58,662 nt of DNA from Prevotella sp. Its GTDB lineage: Bacteria > Bacteroidota > Bacteroidia > Bacteroidales > Dysgonomonadaceae. Both the position numbers and the translations under genes were made by a program. Shown here in pieces: positions 48,491 to 58,662 of the stretch. The stretch's first letter is position 1, and each line of letters opens with the position of its first letter. The stretch covers positions 1 to 58,662 of the forward strand of contig JAISSD010000147.1 in the NCBI GenBank assembly GCA_031273295.1, given 5' to 3'. The notes under the pieces were generated by a model that was not told where the DNA came from, did not search any database, and saw only the letters and a program-made list of their open reading frames with translations.

Positions 48491-48565
48491 TGACCGAAAA
48501 CTAAAAAACGGGAACGAATGATCACCGTTTCCCTGATTTATTATACTTGTAAATATAGTTGTGGA

Positions 48566-49441
48566 ATGGATCGGCAGATGACATTATTCGATTTTGATGA
48601 GGAAAGTACCGGAAACGGCATTGTCAATGTTGCATCTGTACCTCAGCGCAGTCCATTCCGTTATCCGGGAGGGAAAACATGGATTATTCCCGTTGTCCGT
48701 CAATGGATACGGCAGGAGAATAAACCGGTAGCTGAATTGATCGAACCTTTTGCCGGTGGCGGAATTGTAAGTCTCACCGCTGCATTTGAAGGATTGGCGA
48801 GCCATATTACAATGGTTGAACGGGATGAAGAAATTGCCGCAGTATGGGAGGTAATGCTGAATGGAGAAAATAAATGGCTTGCCGATAAAATCTTTTCTTA
48901 CAACCTGACTGTTGACAACGTAAAATCGGAATTGGATAAACCGGACAAACAGCTGCATGACATAGCATTTTGTACCATTCTCAAAAACCGGATTTTTCAT
49001 GGCGGCATTCTTGCCAAAGGTTCGGGGATGACTAAAAACGGTGAAAACGGGAAAGGCATCGCCTCTCGCCCTAAAACTTTACGGGACAGAATTATCGCGA
49101 TCGGGTATATTAAAGACAAAATCAATTTTATTACAGGGGATGCTTTTGATATATTGGAGCAAAACAAGAACAACGATAAATCTTTTTTCTTTATCGACCC
49201 TCCTTATACTGTTGCAGGTAAAAGGCTTTACACCTATTTCGATATAGACCACGAACGTTTATTTGCTTTAATATCCGTATTAAAAGGTAAATTCATGCTT
49301 ACTTACGATAATACTGATGAAATAAGGCAATTGGCGGACAGGTACAATCTTCAATATAAAACCATCCCCATGAAAACCACTCATCATCTGGAAAAAAAAG
49401 AAATAGTTATCTCGGATAATTTTTCATGGTGGAAAAAATAA
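48566..49441 (+). CDS. Dam/D12-class N6-adenine DNA methyltransferase
   Basis: SPFRYPGGKTW, EPFAGGG, FFIDPPY. Confidence 0.88.
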   Translation: MDRQMTLFDFDEESTGNGIVNVASVPQRSPFRYPGGKTWIIPVVRQWIRQENKPVAELIEPFAGGGIVSLTAAFEGLASHITMVERDEEIAAVWEVMLNGENKWLADKIFSYNLTVDNVKSELDKPDKQLHDIAFCTILKNRIFHGGILAKGSGMTKNGENGKGIASRPKTLRDRIIAIGYIKDKINFITGDAFDILEQNKNNDKSFFFIDPPYTVAGKRLYTYFDIDHERLFALISVLKGKFMLTYDNTDEIRQLADRYNLQYKTIPMKTTHHLEKKEIVISDNFSWWKK

Positions 49442-49790: not shown

Positions 49791-49850
49791 GTCGGGTAAA
49801 ATGAACATGTCTGGCAATTACGTCCTGAAAAGGACAATATAATAAATATC

Positions 49851-50413
49851 AAAAACGGCCTCTTAGTTCTGTTTCCGTATCGAATTCCGATAATTGAATA
49901 TAAAAAGGCGGAAATCTGTAATCGATTATCCGGGCAAACAAAATATCTTTGTTGTATAGAGTGGATTAAAGAATTAACCGTTGTTAACGTTCTAAAATCA
50001 TATTATCTCGCATGCATAAAACAACAGCGACAGCCGGAGCAGTACTTCGAAAAACCTTTACCCGTTTCTTCGGGCAGGGTGTTTCTTCGCTGTTCTTTCG
50101 GACTTGTATTCCGAAAGTCAATATTATCAGGCCTTACGCTTCGTATAGACAGATTGCAGGTGGCGATATGGAAAACAGCCTCTTTGTCCGGTCTTTGTTC
50201 CGAATTCCGATAATTGAATATAGAAAGGCGGAAATCTGTAACCGATTATCCGGGCAAACAAAATACCTTTGCTGCATAGAGTAGATTCAAAATTAACCGT
50301 TGTTAACGTTCTAAAATCATATTATCTCGCATGAATAAGACAATATCGGTAGCCGGATCAGTACATCGAAAAGCGTTTTCCCGTTTCTTCGGGCAGGGTG
50401 TTTCTTCGCTGTT
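49851..50413 (+). repeat. ~240 bp tandem duplication (49851-50094 / 50171-50413) of a promoter plus gene start
   Basis: Both copies carry CGAATTCCGATAATTGAATATA.AAAGGCGGAAATCTGTAA, TA(T/C)CTTTG and ATG...FFGQGVSSL. Confidence 0.9.
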
Positions 50414-50769
50414 ACGGAGCTGTAATGCCGGTGGTACAGGACAATCGATGGCAGACGCCTTTTTTCGTTTTTTTCTGGCAATGCCTGTCATCCTGTTCTC
50501 CCTGTTACCGGTCTTGTCGCCGGCACAGGGTCTTCCGGTCGCCGGAACAAAGGCTACCGGAACCAGTCATATCGATCCTTATGCTCCCAAGGTATTTTAC
50601 TTTCCTTTCGGCAGTTCGGCTTTGCTGCGGGATTACGCCGATAACCGCAGGATGTTTGAGGCTTTGGACTCTCTATTGCGTACAGAAGAGATTGTTTCAG
50701 CTATCGACACTGTCCAGATACTCGCCGGCTGTTCGCCTGTCGGGTAGCGAGGGATACATTAGGAATTAA
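50331..50769 (+). pseudogene. Truncated OmpA-like (DUF3575/DUF3868-type) fimbrial-operon protein
   Basis: Signal-like segment, then FYFPFGSSALLRDYADNRRMFEALDSLL...IDTVQILAGCSPVG; continues as SEGY in another frame and then stops. Confidence 0.6.
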
Positions 50770-50866
50770 GAATCAAGAAAAAAATTAAAAATTAAAAATT
50801 AAGAATGCAGAATGTCGAAATTAATTAAGAATTAGGAAATTAATGAAGAATTGGGAATTACGGAAT
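50761..50866 (+). repeat. Degenerate heptamer array (AATTAAG / AATTAGG / AATTAAA)
   Basis: GAATTAAGAATCAAG...AATTAAAAATTAAAAATTAAGAATG...AATTAAGAATTAGG. Confidence 0.6.
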
Positions 50867-50905
50867 CAATGAGAAATAAAGATATAAAATCAAAAATACG
50901 GATAT

Positions 50906-51077: not shown

Positions 51078-53267
51078 ATGATTACAAAAAGACGAAATTT
51101 CGTTTTCCGGTATTTGCCGGGTTTGTTCTTGTCCGGGCTGTTGCTTTTGTCAGGTTGTTCGCAGGATGATGTTTCTGACGTTCCTGCAGGTTCTAGTGCT
51201 ATTAGCTTCAGGGCTCAGGGCGGTATGTCTTCCTTGAAGGCTACAACTACTGGCGCTGATTACATCAGGAGTTTTGCGGTCAATGCACATTACGGCCAAT
51301 ATGATGCTACCGGTAAATTCCTGATCGAGGGCGCTACTGTTTATCGCGGCGAGGGCGGCGGTAATAGCTGGACTTATTCTCCTCAGGCTTACTTCCCGAC
51401 AGAAGACAAGGGCGCCGTTGAGTTCTTCGCTTATTCACCTTCGGGCAGTGAAAACGTGAAGGCCGGTCTAAAGGCTGCAACCGATGCCACCCAGACCATC
51501 ACTTATGAAGTTTCCGTCCCGAACGGTTCTGCCACATCCCAGGAGGACTTGCTCGTCGCTCGCCAGACAGTGGAGTACAGCAGCGTGAATAGCGCTTACC
51601 CAAGCGCTGCAGTTGGCTTGCAGTTCCATCATGCCCTGTCGCGTATTCTGGTTGCAGCCTCTTCCAGTCTCGGTCAGGAAGTGCCAGTCGTGATTACAGG
51701 CCTGGCGTTGAAGAACCTGTATTCCAAAGGCGACTTGTCGTTGTCCTCAAGTAATATTCCTGTTACGGGAGGTTGGGGTTATGCCGACAATACTCCCGGC
51801 GCCAAAGTTTTGTGGACGAATGATACAGAGGCATCTACCATTAAAGATTACGCATACAGTCTGCCAGCTTCCGGGGTTCATGTCGGTGAAACACCCGCAA
51901 CAGTCACCGGTGACGACCAGGGGATTTTCATCTTGCCTCAGGCAACCATAGGTGCGGATGTTACAAATGCCGACCGCGATGGCGAGTTCGGTTTGGAGAT
52001 ATCTTATACGATCAATGGCAACGAGGCTTCGTCTCAAGCTTTCGTTCAGTTCTCCGACCTGGTCAGCAGCTCTTCCACAGCAAGCGTCACCTTCGAGATA
52101 GGCCGTCAGTACGTATTGAATTTGACATTCGGCGCTGGTTCGGGTACCGGTGGTGGCGGCGATACTCCCGGAGGTACCGATCCTGACATTAACATCGGGG
52201 CCAAAATCAGCTTCAGCGATCTTGAGGTTGATCCTTATCCCGATAACATACAGGCTCCGCCACCGCCTCCTGTACCTTATCCTCATGAACCTGTGATCTG
52301 GTCCCAGTCTAACATCTATTATGACGAGACTGCGGATGCAGCTACAAACGTGGGTGCATTGACTTTCTCGGAGACTGCCGACCATAATCTTTACCAGGGA
52401 ATTTACTTCAGGTGGGGTAGTTTGGTCGGCGTTTCCGCAAGTGCAAACATGAGTAGTTTCAGCAATGTCGACTACTTGTTTATCCCGGATGTAGATGGTG
52501 ACGGGTTGTATCACAAGGTACAGATTTCGGCTCTTGCGACTCACTCTGATTTGACCGATGTCATCGGTCTCTTTAAAGCCTCTCTTGCTCTTGCGCCAGC
52601 AGTCTGGACTAATGTCGCAAGCGGTGATACCGATGCGTTGACTGCCTTGTGGACTGCTCTTCCTTACGCCACTAGCACCGACGTTATTCCCGTCTCTCCC
52701 GTTTCTGCCACCGGAAGGACAGAACGGGACGACAATGCCTTGACAACAGAATCTGCTTCCCTGTACAGTTCTTACAAGGGCGACGTATGTAAATACCTGG
52801 TCGACAAGAGTTCTACTAACGGTAACAGTTTCTCGAATACAACCTGGCGTTTGCCTACTTCCAGCGAGTTCGGTCTCAAACCCGCTGGCAATCACACCAA
52901 TAGTGATGCCGTTAACGGTATTACCATCGGCGATTACTTCACTAAATGGGTTTACGATGATTACAGTAGCGTTTCTTTCACTGGCGGCATTCTTGAAGAC
53001 GGTACAGACTCCATGATAGGGAATCATTATTGTACTTTGAACTGGGTATATGAGAACACCGACAAGCCGGACTTTCCCGCTTCAGGGAACCGCGGCAGCG
53101 ACAATGGCGGCCTGAGCTACGGCAACAACGGCAACTTCTGGTCGTCGTCAGCCTACGGTACGTCGTTCGCGTACAACCTGTTCTTCAGCAGTAGCAGCGT
53201 GAACCCGGACGGCAACGGCAACCGGTCGAACGGTCGTAGCGTTAGGTGTGTCAGGCCCGGAGAATAA
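51078..53267 (+). CDS. Fimbrillin (Mfa1-like/type V pilin) lipoprotein with C-terminal CLec-type variable domain; DGR target
   Basis: Lipobox LSGC; WTYSPQAYFP, VEFFAYSP, QEDLLVA, LQFHHALSRI; Gly/Pro linker; C-domain YFRWGS, WRLPT..EF, FPASGNR, NFWSSS, GRSVRCV. Confidence 0.88.
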   Translation: MITKRRNFVFRYLPGLFLSGLLLLSGCSQDDVSDVPAGSSAISFRAQGGMSSLKATTTGADYIRSFAVNAHYGQYDATGKFLIEGATVYRGEGGGNSWTYSPQAYFPTEDKGAVEFFAYSPSGSENVKAGLKAATDATQTITYEVSVPNGSATSQEDLLVARQTVEYSSVNSAYPSAAVGLQFHHALSRILVAASSSLGQEVPVVITGLALKNLYSKGDLSLSSSNIPVTGGWGYADNTPGAKVLWTNDTEASTIKDYAYSLPASGVHVGETPATVTGDDQGIFILPQATIGADVTNADRDGEFGLEISYTINGNEASSQAFVQFSDLVSSSSTASVTFEIGRQYVLNLTFGAGSGTGGGGDTPGGTDPDINIGAKISFSDLEVDPYPDNIQAPPPPPVPYPHEPVIWSQSNIYYDETADAATNVGALTFSETADHNLYQGIYFRWGSLVGVSASANMSSFSNVDYLFIPDVDGDGLYHKVQISALATHSDLTDVIGLFKASLALAPAVWTNVASGDTDALTALWTALPYATSTDVIPVSPVSATGRTERDDNALTTESASLYSSYKGDVCKYLVDKSSTNGNSFSNTTWRLPTSSEFGLKPAGNHTNSDAVNGITIGDYFTKWVYDDYSSVSFTGGILEDGTDSMIGNHYCTLNWVYENTDKPDFPASGNRGSDNGGLSYGNNGNFWSSSAYGTSFAYNLFFSSSSVNPDGNGNRSNGRSVRCVRPGE
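53085..53255 (+). repeat. DGR variable region (VR)
   Basis: 57 codons aligning with 53827-54003; TR AAC codons appear as GGC, AGC, TAC, TTC or GAC. Confidence 0.88.
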
Positions 53268-53354
53268 GCGCCCTTAAGGCGCGCATCCGATTCATTTGAT
53301 TTATTACCTTCCCGCATTTAAGAGCGGGAAGGTTTGAATACCGCCTTTAAGGCG
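53268..53354 (+). other. Three hairpins directly after the VR stop (candidate DGR target-recognition cruciform / terminator)
   Basis: GCGCC-CTTAA-GGCGC; ACCTTCCCGC-ATTTAAGA-GCGGGAAGGT; CGCC-TTTAA-GGCG. Confidence 0.7.
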
Positions 53355-53527
53355 TTCGAAATTTTTTTCGCTCCGGTTATGTCAAAGGAAGTTAACCATT
53401 TAACAATGTTTAACAGAATGAATTAATATTGAATAGCAAGTGCATGGGTGAAGAGTGTAATATGGAGGAGAAATTGCGCCGGGAGTTCTGCCGGGCCGCA
53501 AGCTCCGGCAGAAGAGTGGTTAATACT

Positions 53528-53812
53528 GTCTGAACACGATTTAAAGGATTAAAGGATTACAGGATTTTCATATGATAATAATTTTGTTTTCAATTGACAT
53601 ATGGAACTTGCATGATTTTTATTATCACGGACTTTGGTGATTTGACAAAAATCATGCTTCGTTTCCTGATTGTGTCCGTAAAGAATTGTTACTGAATAAT
53701 ATGACTGTTATTGCATTACAAACGCATGTTTTACAATGTATTAAAAATTATTGCAGTCAATTTGATCCGCAGCAATTCCTGAATCCTTGAATCATATAAA
53801 TCGTGTTCTGAC
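53528..53812. mobile_element. ~285 bp element bounded by ~39 bp imperfect inverted repeats, abutting the TR 5' end
   Basis: GTCTGAACACGATTTAAAGGATTAAAGGATTACAGGATT versus reverse complement GTCAGAACACGATTTATATGATTCAAGGATTCAGGAATT. Confidence 0.65.
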
Positions 53813-53826
53813 TTTTCCCTGTTTTC

Positions 53827-54003
53827 GGGAACCGCAACAACGACAATGGCGAGCTGAACAACGTTGGCAACAACGGCAACTACCGGTCGTCGTCAGCCAA
53901 CGGTGATGCGAACGCGTACAACCTGAACTTCAACAGCGGCAACGTGAACCCGAACAACAACAACAACAACCGGACGAACGGCTTCAGTGTCAGGTGTGTC
54001 AGA
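53827..54003 (+). other. DGR template repeat (TR)
   Basis: Intergenic AAC-rich copy of the VR ending AGGTGTGTCAG; about 22 of ~35 mismatches fall at TR adenines (manual count). Confidence 0.88.
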
Positions 54004-54273
54004 GCATTTGTTTCAATTTCAGAGCCTGTTCAAGTTTTGCCTGCCAGATGGATTGTCTCCGTTCTTTCGGGATTTCCTTTTCCATTCATCAATAAAAATA
54101 CAACGCATGAAATTCATCTGTTCATGCGTTTTTTACATATACCTTCCATGCGCAAAACCATGCCGTACACGGTATAACAATAAAAAAACAAATAACCTGT
54201 AACAGCAAGGAGGCATCCCTGCAGGATAGCCGAGCGATGATGAACGTTGCGTTCTACCGAACGGCGCTTTAAT

Positions 54274-55518
54274 TCAGTCCAGTTTATGTATTACCAGCCC
54301 CGAACGGAGTTTCGGCTCGAACCATGTCGTTTTCGGCGGCATGATATTTCCCGAATCGGCTATGTCCATCAGTTGTTTCATGGTTACAGGATAGAGGGCG
54401 ATCGCCAGCTTCATCTCGCCGCTGTCGACACGTTTTTTCAGTTCGCCCAGCCCCCTGATACCGCCAACAAAGTCTATGCGTTTGTCGGAACGCAGGTCTT
54501 TGATTCCCAGGATTTCATCCAGAATGTATTTTGATGAAATCGTTACATCCAGTACCCCGATAGGGTCGTTGTCGTCATAGGTTTCCGGTCTGGCTGTCAG
54601 ACTGTAGCACTTGCCTTCGAGATAGATGGAGAAATTATGCAAACCTGCGGGCGATACTATATCCGTACCTTTTTCTTCGATGCTAAAGCGTACTTTCAGT
54701 TTTTCCAGGAATTTACCGGCTGTCAGTCCATTCAGGTCTTTTACCAGGCGGTTATAGTCTATGATATTCAACTGTGTGCCGGGGAAACAAACAGCCATGA
54801 AGAAGTTATATTCTTCATCGCCTTTATGGTTCGGGTTCTGTTTCGCTTTTTCAGCTCCTACAAGCGCGGCTGCTGCTGACCGGTGATGCCCGTCGGCAAT
54901 GTACAGGCCGGGTATTGCCGCAAACAGTTCCGTGATTCTACCGATATCGTTTTTGTCTTTTATCACCCAGAAATGATGTCCTACGCCGTCATTGGACGTG
55001 AAGTCGTATTCGGCTTCTCCCGCGACGATTCTCTTTACTGTTTCGTCCAGTTCCCTGTTGTCGGGATAGGCAAAGAATACAGGTTCTATGTTCGCGTTGT
55101 TTATCCGCACATGTTTCATACGGTCTTCTTCCTTGTCTCTGCGCGTCAGCTCGTGTTTTTTTATGCGGCCGTTCATATAGTCTTCCACACAGGCGCATAC
55201 CACAAGCCCGTACTGTGTTTTCCCGTTCATTGTCTGGGCGTATACGTAGTAATATTCCTCCGGATCCTGCAGCAGCCAGCCTTTTTCCTGAAACTTGTTG
55301 AAATTTTCGACGGCCCGTTTGTAAACATCCGGATGATGTTCGTCCATTATCGTTTCAAAATCGATTTCGGGCTTGATAATGCGATATAGCGACTTTTCGT
55401 TGCCTTCGGCTTCGAGGCGCGCTTCGAGCGAGCTCAAGACATCATAAGGACGTGAAACTACTTCCCTGACAATACTTTTGGGAGGTCTCACTCCTTTAAA
55501 CGGTTTAATTACGGTCAT
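54274..55518 (-). CDS. DUF1015 family protein
   Basis: IKPFKGVRP, SRPYDV, IKKHELTR, YIADGHHR, MPPKTTWFEPKLRSGL. Confidence 0.92.
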   Translation of the reverse strand: MTVIKPFKGVRPPKSIVREVVSRPYDVLSSLEARLEAEGNEKSLYRIIKPEIDFETIMDEHHPDVYKRAVENFNKFQEKGWLLQDPEEYYYVYAQTMNGKTQYGLVVCACVEDYMNGRIKKHELTRRDKEEDRMKHVRINNANIEPVFFAYPDNRELDETVKRIVAGEAEYDFTSNDGVGHHFWVIKDKNDIGRITELFAAIPGLYIADGHHRSAAAALVGAEKAKQNPNHKGDEEYNFFMAVCFPGTQLNIIDYNRLVKDLNGLTAGKFLEKLKVRFSIEEKGTDIVSPAGLHNFSIYLEGKCYSLTARPETYDDNDPIGVLDVTISSKYILDEILGIKDLRSDKRIDFVGGIRGLGELKKRVDSGEMKLAIALYPVTMKQLMDIADSGNIMPPKTTWFEPKLRSGLVIHKLD

Positions 55519-58371: not shown

Positions 58372-58410
58372 GTTTGCGGTTGCCTGTGATTGCGTCCGTC
58401 AAAATGTTCG

Positions 58411-58493
58411 GTTTCCGTTCCGAATTCCGATAATTGAATATAAAAAGGCGGAAATCTGTAACAGGCCAGTCAGCAGTATTAAATATCTTTGTT
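58411..58493 (+). promoter_or_regulatory. Third copy of the conserved fimbrial-gene upstream motif with -7 promoter element
   Basis: CGAATTCCGATAATTGAATATAAAAAGGCGGAAATCTGTAA identical to 49881-49921, followed by TATCTTTG. Confidence 0.8.
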
Positions 58494-58616
58494 CGGATTA
58501 GGTAAACATAATGGACATATTCGGTTCCCTTCATTCATTCGGAAACTTTTCCGGCCTGTCGTATTGCCGTTCAATTAACCGTTAATTATTTGATTGCCAA
58601 TTATAAAGAGAGAGTT

Positions 58617-58662
58617 ATGATCACAAAAAGACGAAAATTCGTTACCCGGTTCTTGCCGGGAT
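58617..58662 (+). CDS. Start of a paralog of the 51078 fimbrillin lipoprotein (runs off the window)
   Basis: AAGAGAG..TTATG ATC ACA AAA AGA CGA AAA TTC GTT ACC CGG TTC TTG CCG GGA = MITKRRKFVTRFLPG versus MITKRRNFVFRYLPG. Confidence 0.75.
   Translation, partial: MITKRRKFVTRFLPG

Follow-up and report, generated by a model that had tools for sequence, protein, structure and literature searches.

A decayed DGR cassette beside a lipoprotein pilin gene in a Prevotella sp. genome with many dispersed DGR targets

General background on DGRs is given in PMC3521204 and PMC8144416, and targets remote from their DGR are described in the accessible text of PMC5758913 and PMC7517822. The accessible text on Thiohalocapsa PB-PSB1 (PMC10907252) describes duplicated DGR loci that lack the machinery, MITE-like erosion of these loci and a complete locus that diversifies targets in trans, all of which recall the genome studied here. 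A lipoprotein pilin with a C-terminal variable region (VR) is likewise shared with the type V pilus DGRs of Bacteroides, laid out as pilin-Msl-Avd-TR-RT (bioRxiv 10.1101/2024.11.15.621889), and with architecture D (PMC5758913). In the accessible parts of these two papers, no genome has more than five DGRs and no DGR serves more than seven non-adjacent targets. In the BPP-1 DGR RNA, as here, the flanks of the template repeat (TR) pair with each other and a hairpin follows the VR; in BPP-1, reverse transcription is lost when the upstream strand, which is paired with the spacer, is deleted (bioRxiv 10.1101/2023.10.23.563531, main text as accessible). The hairpin after the VR is described in the accessible text of PMC12875486 as helpful, not strictly required. 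Cyanobacterial remote variable proteins resemble the present case in their dispersed target paralogues, and Nostoc all3226 is a remnant TR-VR pair without a nearby RT (PMC7517822, as far as accessible).

Here, we analyze a window of 58,662 bp, which is one entire contig (G000:C49, JAISSD010000147.1; 0 N) of Prevotella sp. assembly GCA_031273295.1 (G000; 4.17 Mb, 312 contigs, 98% complete), an assembly without contigs below 2.5 kb. A preliminary description of the window had noted a VR-TR pair without RT and Avd, and had offered two readings, a minimal target and TR unit served by a remote RT or a DGR that lost its enzymes. We think it somewhat probable, from sequence comparison, that the cassette is an eroded duplicate of a pilin-msl-avd-TR-RT element whose own TR is likely inactive and whose pilin is likely a remote target still rewritten in trans.

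The window cassette and its relatives

The target gene is a plus-strand ORF (51078-53267) encoding a 729-aa lipoprotein pilin with a C-terminal VR and an N-terminal Mfa_like_1 domain (Pfam PF13149, E 2.5e-15). The VR itself, recognized as a repeat pair with the TR, lies at about 53073-53255 (+). With regard to a C-type-lectin fold, its domain gives a weak Lcl_C match (E 0.0019) and a weak FISUMP match (E 4e-4), both below cut-off, the C-terminal 166 aa of the pilin were modeled from a 21-row alignment at a pLDDT of 44, too low for use, and a PDB sequence search with the variable domain returned 0 matches. Two DNA hairpins 3' of the VR (53268-53282 and 53306-53333, +), likely the target-recognition element, are intact (DNA fold z -4.4, more stable than all 200 shuffles) and homologous to those at the same position of an intact congener DGR (G006:C24). 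The TR (about 53813-54003, +) is an open frame with 22 AAC codons, separated from the VR by 545 bp, half of which is filled by a MITE-like 285-nt element that the preliminary description had missed (53528-53812, unstranded) recognized by its inverted repeat and genome-wide copies. Past the TR come a 3' trailer (spacer) common to sister TRs (54004-54075, +), an unrelated dispersed repeat (54097-54178, unstranded; 56 genome matches of at least 60 nt) and, as the right boundary of the cassette, a convergent DUF1015 gene (54274-55518, -; PF06245, E 2.7e-109), with its stop at 54274, 270 bp past the TR as previously stated. The relatives align to the window locus only in the DUF1015 part; a further housekeeping-type gene, which we take to be pncB, comes after DUF1015 in seven of the ten relatives that have flanking sequence, and the cassette finds 0 matches there. 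A promoter scan gave 5 sigma-70-like sites against 2.4 expected, an uninformative excess.

Several other features surround the pilin gene. A 138-aa ORF upstream of it (50331-50890), with no Pfam match, stops just before an AAGAATT-type repeat (129 genome matches), which suggests one more gene cut short by a repeat; on C204, too, the pilin has an ORF of this sort in front of it. The upstream unit of the pilin gene is duplicated in the window (49846-50413 and 58386-58662), another pilin gene from this family starts at the extreme contig end, and a lone D12-class adenine methyltransferase gene (48518-49441) lies left of the pilin region.

The reported lack of machinery in the window holds for the RT (tblastn with the genome's eight RT ORFs, best E 0.26). 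No RT gene stands 3' of the TR, where in intact relatives it starts ~40 nt past the TR, and no gap is present there, so the refuting case named in the preliminary description, an assembly break that hides an adjacent RT, does not apply after the TR. An intact avd is also absent from the window (Avd and MSL queries, best E 0.15), but a decayed avd 3' stub, aligned to the avd end of G006:C24, had been overlooked at 53389-53459 (+). Its last codons read AWVKSV where the intact homologue ends AWAKSVK, and its alignment score of 57 exceeds all 2000 shuffles of a 90-nt target (maximum 55), a region picked by position after the match was seen. In G006:C24, the intact homologue, the order is pilin, post-VR hairpins, avd, non-coding leader, TR, short trailer and RT, and the window has in common with it the post-VR hairpins, the avd end, the leader and the trailer.

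Sister cassettes within the genome fill in the steps of loss. C121 retains msl and a frameshifted avd, followed by the same insert as in the window; C169 carries the same insert and has lost its TR; C139 is an insert-bearing copy itself hit by an insertion; and C97 keeps an RT tail only. The TR 5' half is missing in C57, C160, C192, C204 and C289, with an AAGAATT-type repeat instead, and the TR 3' half is missing in C182. All 12 TRs seen of the window's family (family A) are damaged, none has a linked RT, and an intact family-A DGR is absent from the assembly. The branch of the preliminary description that invoked lost enzymes is directly supported by the avd stub and by the sister cassettes, which between them show each step of the loss. 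The preliminary interpretation as a whole stood in part: a remote RT and Avd do exist in the genome, while the comparisons indicate that the window cassette is a decayed full cassette and not a designed minimal unit. Of the properties of a complete, autonomous DGR it has the adenine-biased TR/VR repeat at the end of the target ORF, and it lacks the RT gene, avd/msl, a structured RNA intact on both sides of the TR and the identity of VR and TR at non-A sites; with its avd stub, insert, sister series and intact congener copy it has the makeup of a degenerate DGR locus such as those of PMC10907252. A complete cassette would have been copied to this site and its msl, avd and RT deleted, and the inserted repeat would have taken out the strands of the leader needed for pairing with the trailer and for closing the TR domain.

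The 285-nt element is bounded by terminal inverted repeats of 31 nt, and a dispersed repeat of 100 nt is nested inside it (~53566-53668); genome-wide, the element's ends give 35 terminal-repeat matches and 6 paired elements, and the nested repeat 40 matches. It occupies the place of the conserved inner leader domain, and the leader motif is absent here. The remaining 5' part of the leader (53468-53525, +), delimited by alignment with intact leaders, holds the outer-helix strand, the first hairpin, of which the window family has 11 genome copies, and the 4 nt that begin the predicted trailer-pairing strand; the fragment has a fold z of -2.5, with 4 of 200 shuffles as stable. Across six DGR families, in four sequence solutions, a leader strand of 9 nt pairs, at 7-9 of 9 positions, with the bases directly past the TR, and for C68, C41 and G034 the own trailer is the best or equal best partner of the leader (8 versus 5-8). 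The inner leader is closed by a 7-bp helix, with 6-7 of 7 positions paired in four sequence versions. The duplex energy of leader and trailer, a weak test, clearly beats shuffles in only 3 of 14 units with intact leaders. The insert deletes five of the nine outer-helix bases and the entire inner domain, and both helices are broken or absent here. We infer that the leader-trailer helix is the counterpart of the BPP-1 avd:Sp 'cPRT Stop', and by analogy with that duplex the missing leader strands would block cis-primed cDNA synthesis.

The TR as a template and the VR as a target

The VR and the AAC-rich TR beside the pilin are, as first described, a real repeat pair; their differences are adenine-biased and affect 22 of 56 TR adenines versus 16 of 127 other bases, with 3 gaps (Fisher p 1.1e-4). 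The best TR/VR pairs of intact DGRs differ at 0/143, 2/140 and 1/132 non-A sites. Since a second target within an intact relative DGR differs from its TR at 20/129 non-A sites, a mismatch between VR and TR is by itself no proof of a dead TR. When 177 VR-like sequences were compared with the window TR, none of the best 15 of the 177 did better than 14/128 non-A mismatches. The window TR has CGG (Arg) at a codon where 39 of 43 family VRs, the window VR included, have TGG (Trp), and its 5' variant occurs in 0/43 family VRs; GAG at columns 40-42 is, like CGG, an allele of its own. It retains 21 of 24 consensus AAC codons, and within columns 16-189 each of its deviations from the family consensus is a base that VRs also have. 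Among assembled TRs, A at column 157 occurs only in the window TR (13/43 VRs) and GGT at columns 91-93 only in the window TR and that of C95 (11/43 VRs). TGG is found in all 11 GGT-bearing VRs and in all 7 that bear A157/C159, which suggests that they were written from an ancestor or sibling of the window TR. The window TR is probably dead or crippled as a template.

A working satellite would require that the insert-bearing TR is transcribed and copied by a remote RT-Avd, with the terminal hairpin of the insert standing in for the leader, and that it acts as one donor of a shared pool patching many VRs. This we regard as unlikely on the sequence features at hand, even though the AAC codons, the first hairpin, the outer-helix strands and the trailer are all retained, the alleles of the window TR are common in VRs and the same 3' insert junction is found in five assembled full-length family TRs. 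Insert-bearing TRs seem to be still reshuffled, because these copies differ more from one another in their TRs (21-32/~180) than in the adjoining end of the insert (2-17/~130). A patchwork of TRs fits 41 of 43 VRs better than a single TR, a comparison made with no null model and an outcome that missing donors could also give, and the C256 VR has the CGG codon and differs from the C121 TR at just 6/125 non-A sites. It speaks against a working satellite that the conserved leader domain is gone together with half of the leader-trailer helix, that CGG is absent from every VR with the distinctive alleles, that the 5' variant is absent from all family VRs and that the same insert is present in the TR-less C169 and the insertion-hit C139.

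The VR gives a different picture from the TR. Compared with ten aligned family TRs, the window VR is mismatched at 21 of 48 adenine columns and at 0 of 68 invariant non-A columns (p 3.5e-10), and no other of the 43 family VRs is free of mismatches at the invariant non-A columns, where the mean is 7%. Its 16 non-A mismatches to the neighbor TR are mostly at columns that vary among TRs. By this pattern the window VR looks recently rewritten. The best single assembled TR still leaves 10-13 non-A mismatches to it, among them the C95 TR, which at 13/121 scores better than the neighbor TR. No family-A VR has a clean match to any single assembled TR, so the true donor is unseen, and it may be unassembled, given that five RT copies are cut at their starts and contigs below 2.5 kb are missing. 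The part of the cassette most likely served in trans is the VR, not the window TR.

Targets, templates and machinery elsewhere in the genome

An iterated VR/TR peptide profile yielded 200 matches in the genome, 15 AAC-rich TR-like and 185 VR-like. When matches were kept only if they spanned at least 55 codons and closed a long or 5'-open frame, and two non-coding contig-start units were removed, 139 DGR-type target genes on 114 contigs were left. Most encode lipoproteins of 600-900 aa, and the set comprises at least four TR families; a contig start truncates 86 of the genes, and 50 of 52 complete long ones have a lipobox-like motif. The target domain has 110 matches in this genome versus 0-16 in each of 34 congeners, the query favoring its own genome. 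It had been proposed that each dispersed adhesin carries its own template; this was rejected, as a TR lies within 2 kb of only 7 of the 127 targets that could be scored. Short (~150-aa) VR-like genes of another type occur on C15, C24 and C300, with eight motif matches on C15 and no own TR seen.

Outside family A there are 28 leader matches, and 21 complete units were analyzed. Such a family-B unit is non-coding, ~380 nt long and sharp-ended, dispersed or in tandem, and consists of a leader, a TR-like core and a short trailer; about 25 are spread over C154 (L028, L050), C152 (L026), C125, C264, C232, C250, C2, C37, C50, C122, C162, C219 and C312. Mean divergence is 12% for leaders and 32% for cores, and 3.5% versus 33% in one tandem pair. 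At the 22 NAY consensus codons of the cores, mismatch is 48%, 38% and 13% at positions 1, 2 and 3, and 19 of the 21 cores are heavily and individually adenine-mutated, keeping only 1-5 AAC. C152 and C154 have such mutated units directly in front of their intact RTs. The simplest reading, which we consider likely from these mutation patterns, is that family-B template copies have been overwritten by mutagenic cDNA. Two other roles were considered for the units: RT-copied SINE-like elements are not supported, the adenine excess in leaders being small (10% versus 7-8%), and as templates of coding VRs the cores gave no clean match, the top-scoring pair having 23/150 non-A mismatches. TR self-mutagenesis is known from an engineered recombineering system (bioRxiv 10.1101/2025.03.24.644984, accessible text), and no natural case was found in the accessible literature searched. 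A wider scheme is doubtful to about the same degree as the working satellite: a distributed hypermutation network, in which few RT-Avd enzymes would serve dozens of stand-alone templates, including the insert-capped one, giving patchwork VRs in ~140 pilus tips and mutual overwriting of templates. If it were true, templates would evolve and the one-way rule from template to target would break down.

The proposed search of the genome for a DGR RT and avd found both on other contigs, and the possibility that the genome has no DGR RT can be set aside. Full-length DGR-type RTs number four (C68, C41, C152 and C154), five more are cut by contig starts (C104, C310, C108, C84 and C38), three of them with the catalytic YVDD in an open frame, and four RT 3' remnants lie on C97, C227, C258 and C51. 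The label "DGR-type" is based on their place beside TRs and avd and on their resemblance to the RTs that belong to complete congener DGRs. One further RT, on C76, is of the group II intron type (PF00078 and tblastn). In an RT tree built without reference DGR RTs, C104, C310 and C108 group with C41, and C152, C154 and G006 show no clear grouping, so the tree does not point to one RT as the enzyme of family A. A metagenome scan with the C108 RT found 12 loci at 36-49% identity and no close intact cassette.

The complete pilin-msl-avd-TR-RT element of the genome, C68:28207-33279 (L032), carries the sole intact avd in the assembly and is distant from the window family. Its VR differs from its own TR at 14 of 44 adenines and 0 of 143 non-adenines, and four genes elsewhere, on C115, C137, C224 and C225, match the C68 TR with 1-2/143 non-A mismatches; trans-targeting thus occurs in this genome. 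Of the features of a remote DGR target, the window VR has RT and Avd elsewhere and a post-VR hairpin; a distant TR that differs from it at adenines only is not among the assembled ones. The window VR would be rewritten by RT, Avd and template RNA produced at other loci, and the template that wrote it probably belongs to copies that the assembly lacks, upstream of the five start-cut RT genes. Further DGR-related sequences were noted: at C41:661-3775 the TR and full-length RT are split by AAGAATT-type repeats and an MSL-like ORF; stand-alone MSL-like genes lie on C117, C51 and C18; the RT frames C152:13951-15267 and C154:5648-7090 extend into an avd-like tail (…QLAMWVKSAK) that opens the next template unit; and a congener DGR, L058 (G034:C70, 875-1513), has two tandem leader and TR units before its RT, which differ at a few adenine positions.

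A full relic, with TR and VR both frozen and the VR last rewritten before the machinery was lost and since kept by selection on the pilin, we judge slightly less probable again than the working satellite. It would fit the damaged, RT-unlinked state of all family-A TRs, the lack of an assembled intact family-A DGR and the distance of the window VR from the TR of the intact C68 system (42/120 non-A mismatches). It is at odds with the absence of drift in the window VR at the invariant non-A sites and with the start-cut RTs, three of which are open through YVDD, in an assembly where, for want of contigs below 2.5 kb, collapsed intact cassettes would be missing. A chimera, in which recombination or mis-assembly at the insert joined the VR to the TR and flank of another cassette and so hid the RT, is very improbable, since the higher score of the VR against the C95 TR and the start of the C95 and C167 contigs within near-identical insert copies (2/135 differences) are countered by the 9-11/127 differences between these copies and the window insert, which suffice for assembly through it, by the lack of a clean match of the window VR to the C95 TR either, and by the same RT-less layout on the unbroken contigs C121, C204, C192, C289 and C261.

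Comparison with described systems

The eroded, trans-served duplicate that we favor belongs to a known kind, because degenerate MITE-eroded loci served in trans (PMC10907252), remote targets and the pilin-msl-avd layout are published, as far as the accessible texts go. The window cassette is an ordinary, well-resolved case of DGR decay. It shows that an RT-less target and TR with good AAC content can hide a broken template RNA, so the flanking RNA should be checked before the label "satellite" is applied. On RT-less, orphan or non-autonomous templates and large pilin-DGR expansions, only the papers cited here were found in a search of the accessible literature.

Differences from the described systems are seen at several levels. 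The Bacteroides layout with msl and avd is matched by C68 and, with a broken avd, by C121, whereas the window copy is without msl, avd and RT (compared with the accessible text of bioRxiv 10.1101/2024.11.15.621889). Unlike in BPP-1 (bioRxiv 10.1101/2023.10.23.563531, accessible text), the leader here is non-coding, 170 nt long and past the avd stop, the equivalence of the two being drawn from position and pairing only. In Thiohalocapsa PB-PSB1, trans-served VRs equal the donor TR at all non-A sites in the accessible account (PMC10907252), whereas the present assembly holds no exact donor.

The genomic setting outweighs the cassette itself, with its 139 targets and its dispersed template cores that bear the DGR's own mutational signature. 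It provides a natural system for two questions, whether an RT uses the templates of other loci and how a TR is normally protected from its own cDNA. Thiohalocapsa PB-PSB1 has 9 loci and 15 targets in the accessible text, compared with 139 pilin-type targets and at least 13 places with DGR-type RT sequence here, and the cyanobacterial case, with different targets in a different phylum, has 76 remote targets over 21 genomes (PMC7517822, accessible text), compared with 139 in this single genome. The cited papers give much lower numbers, both per DGR and per genome.
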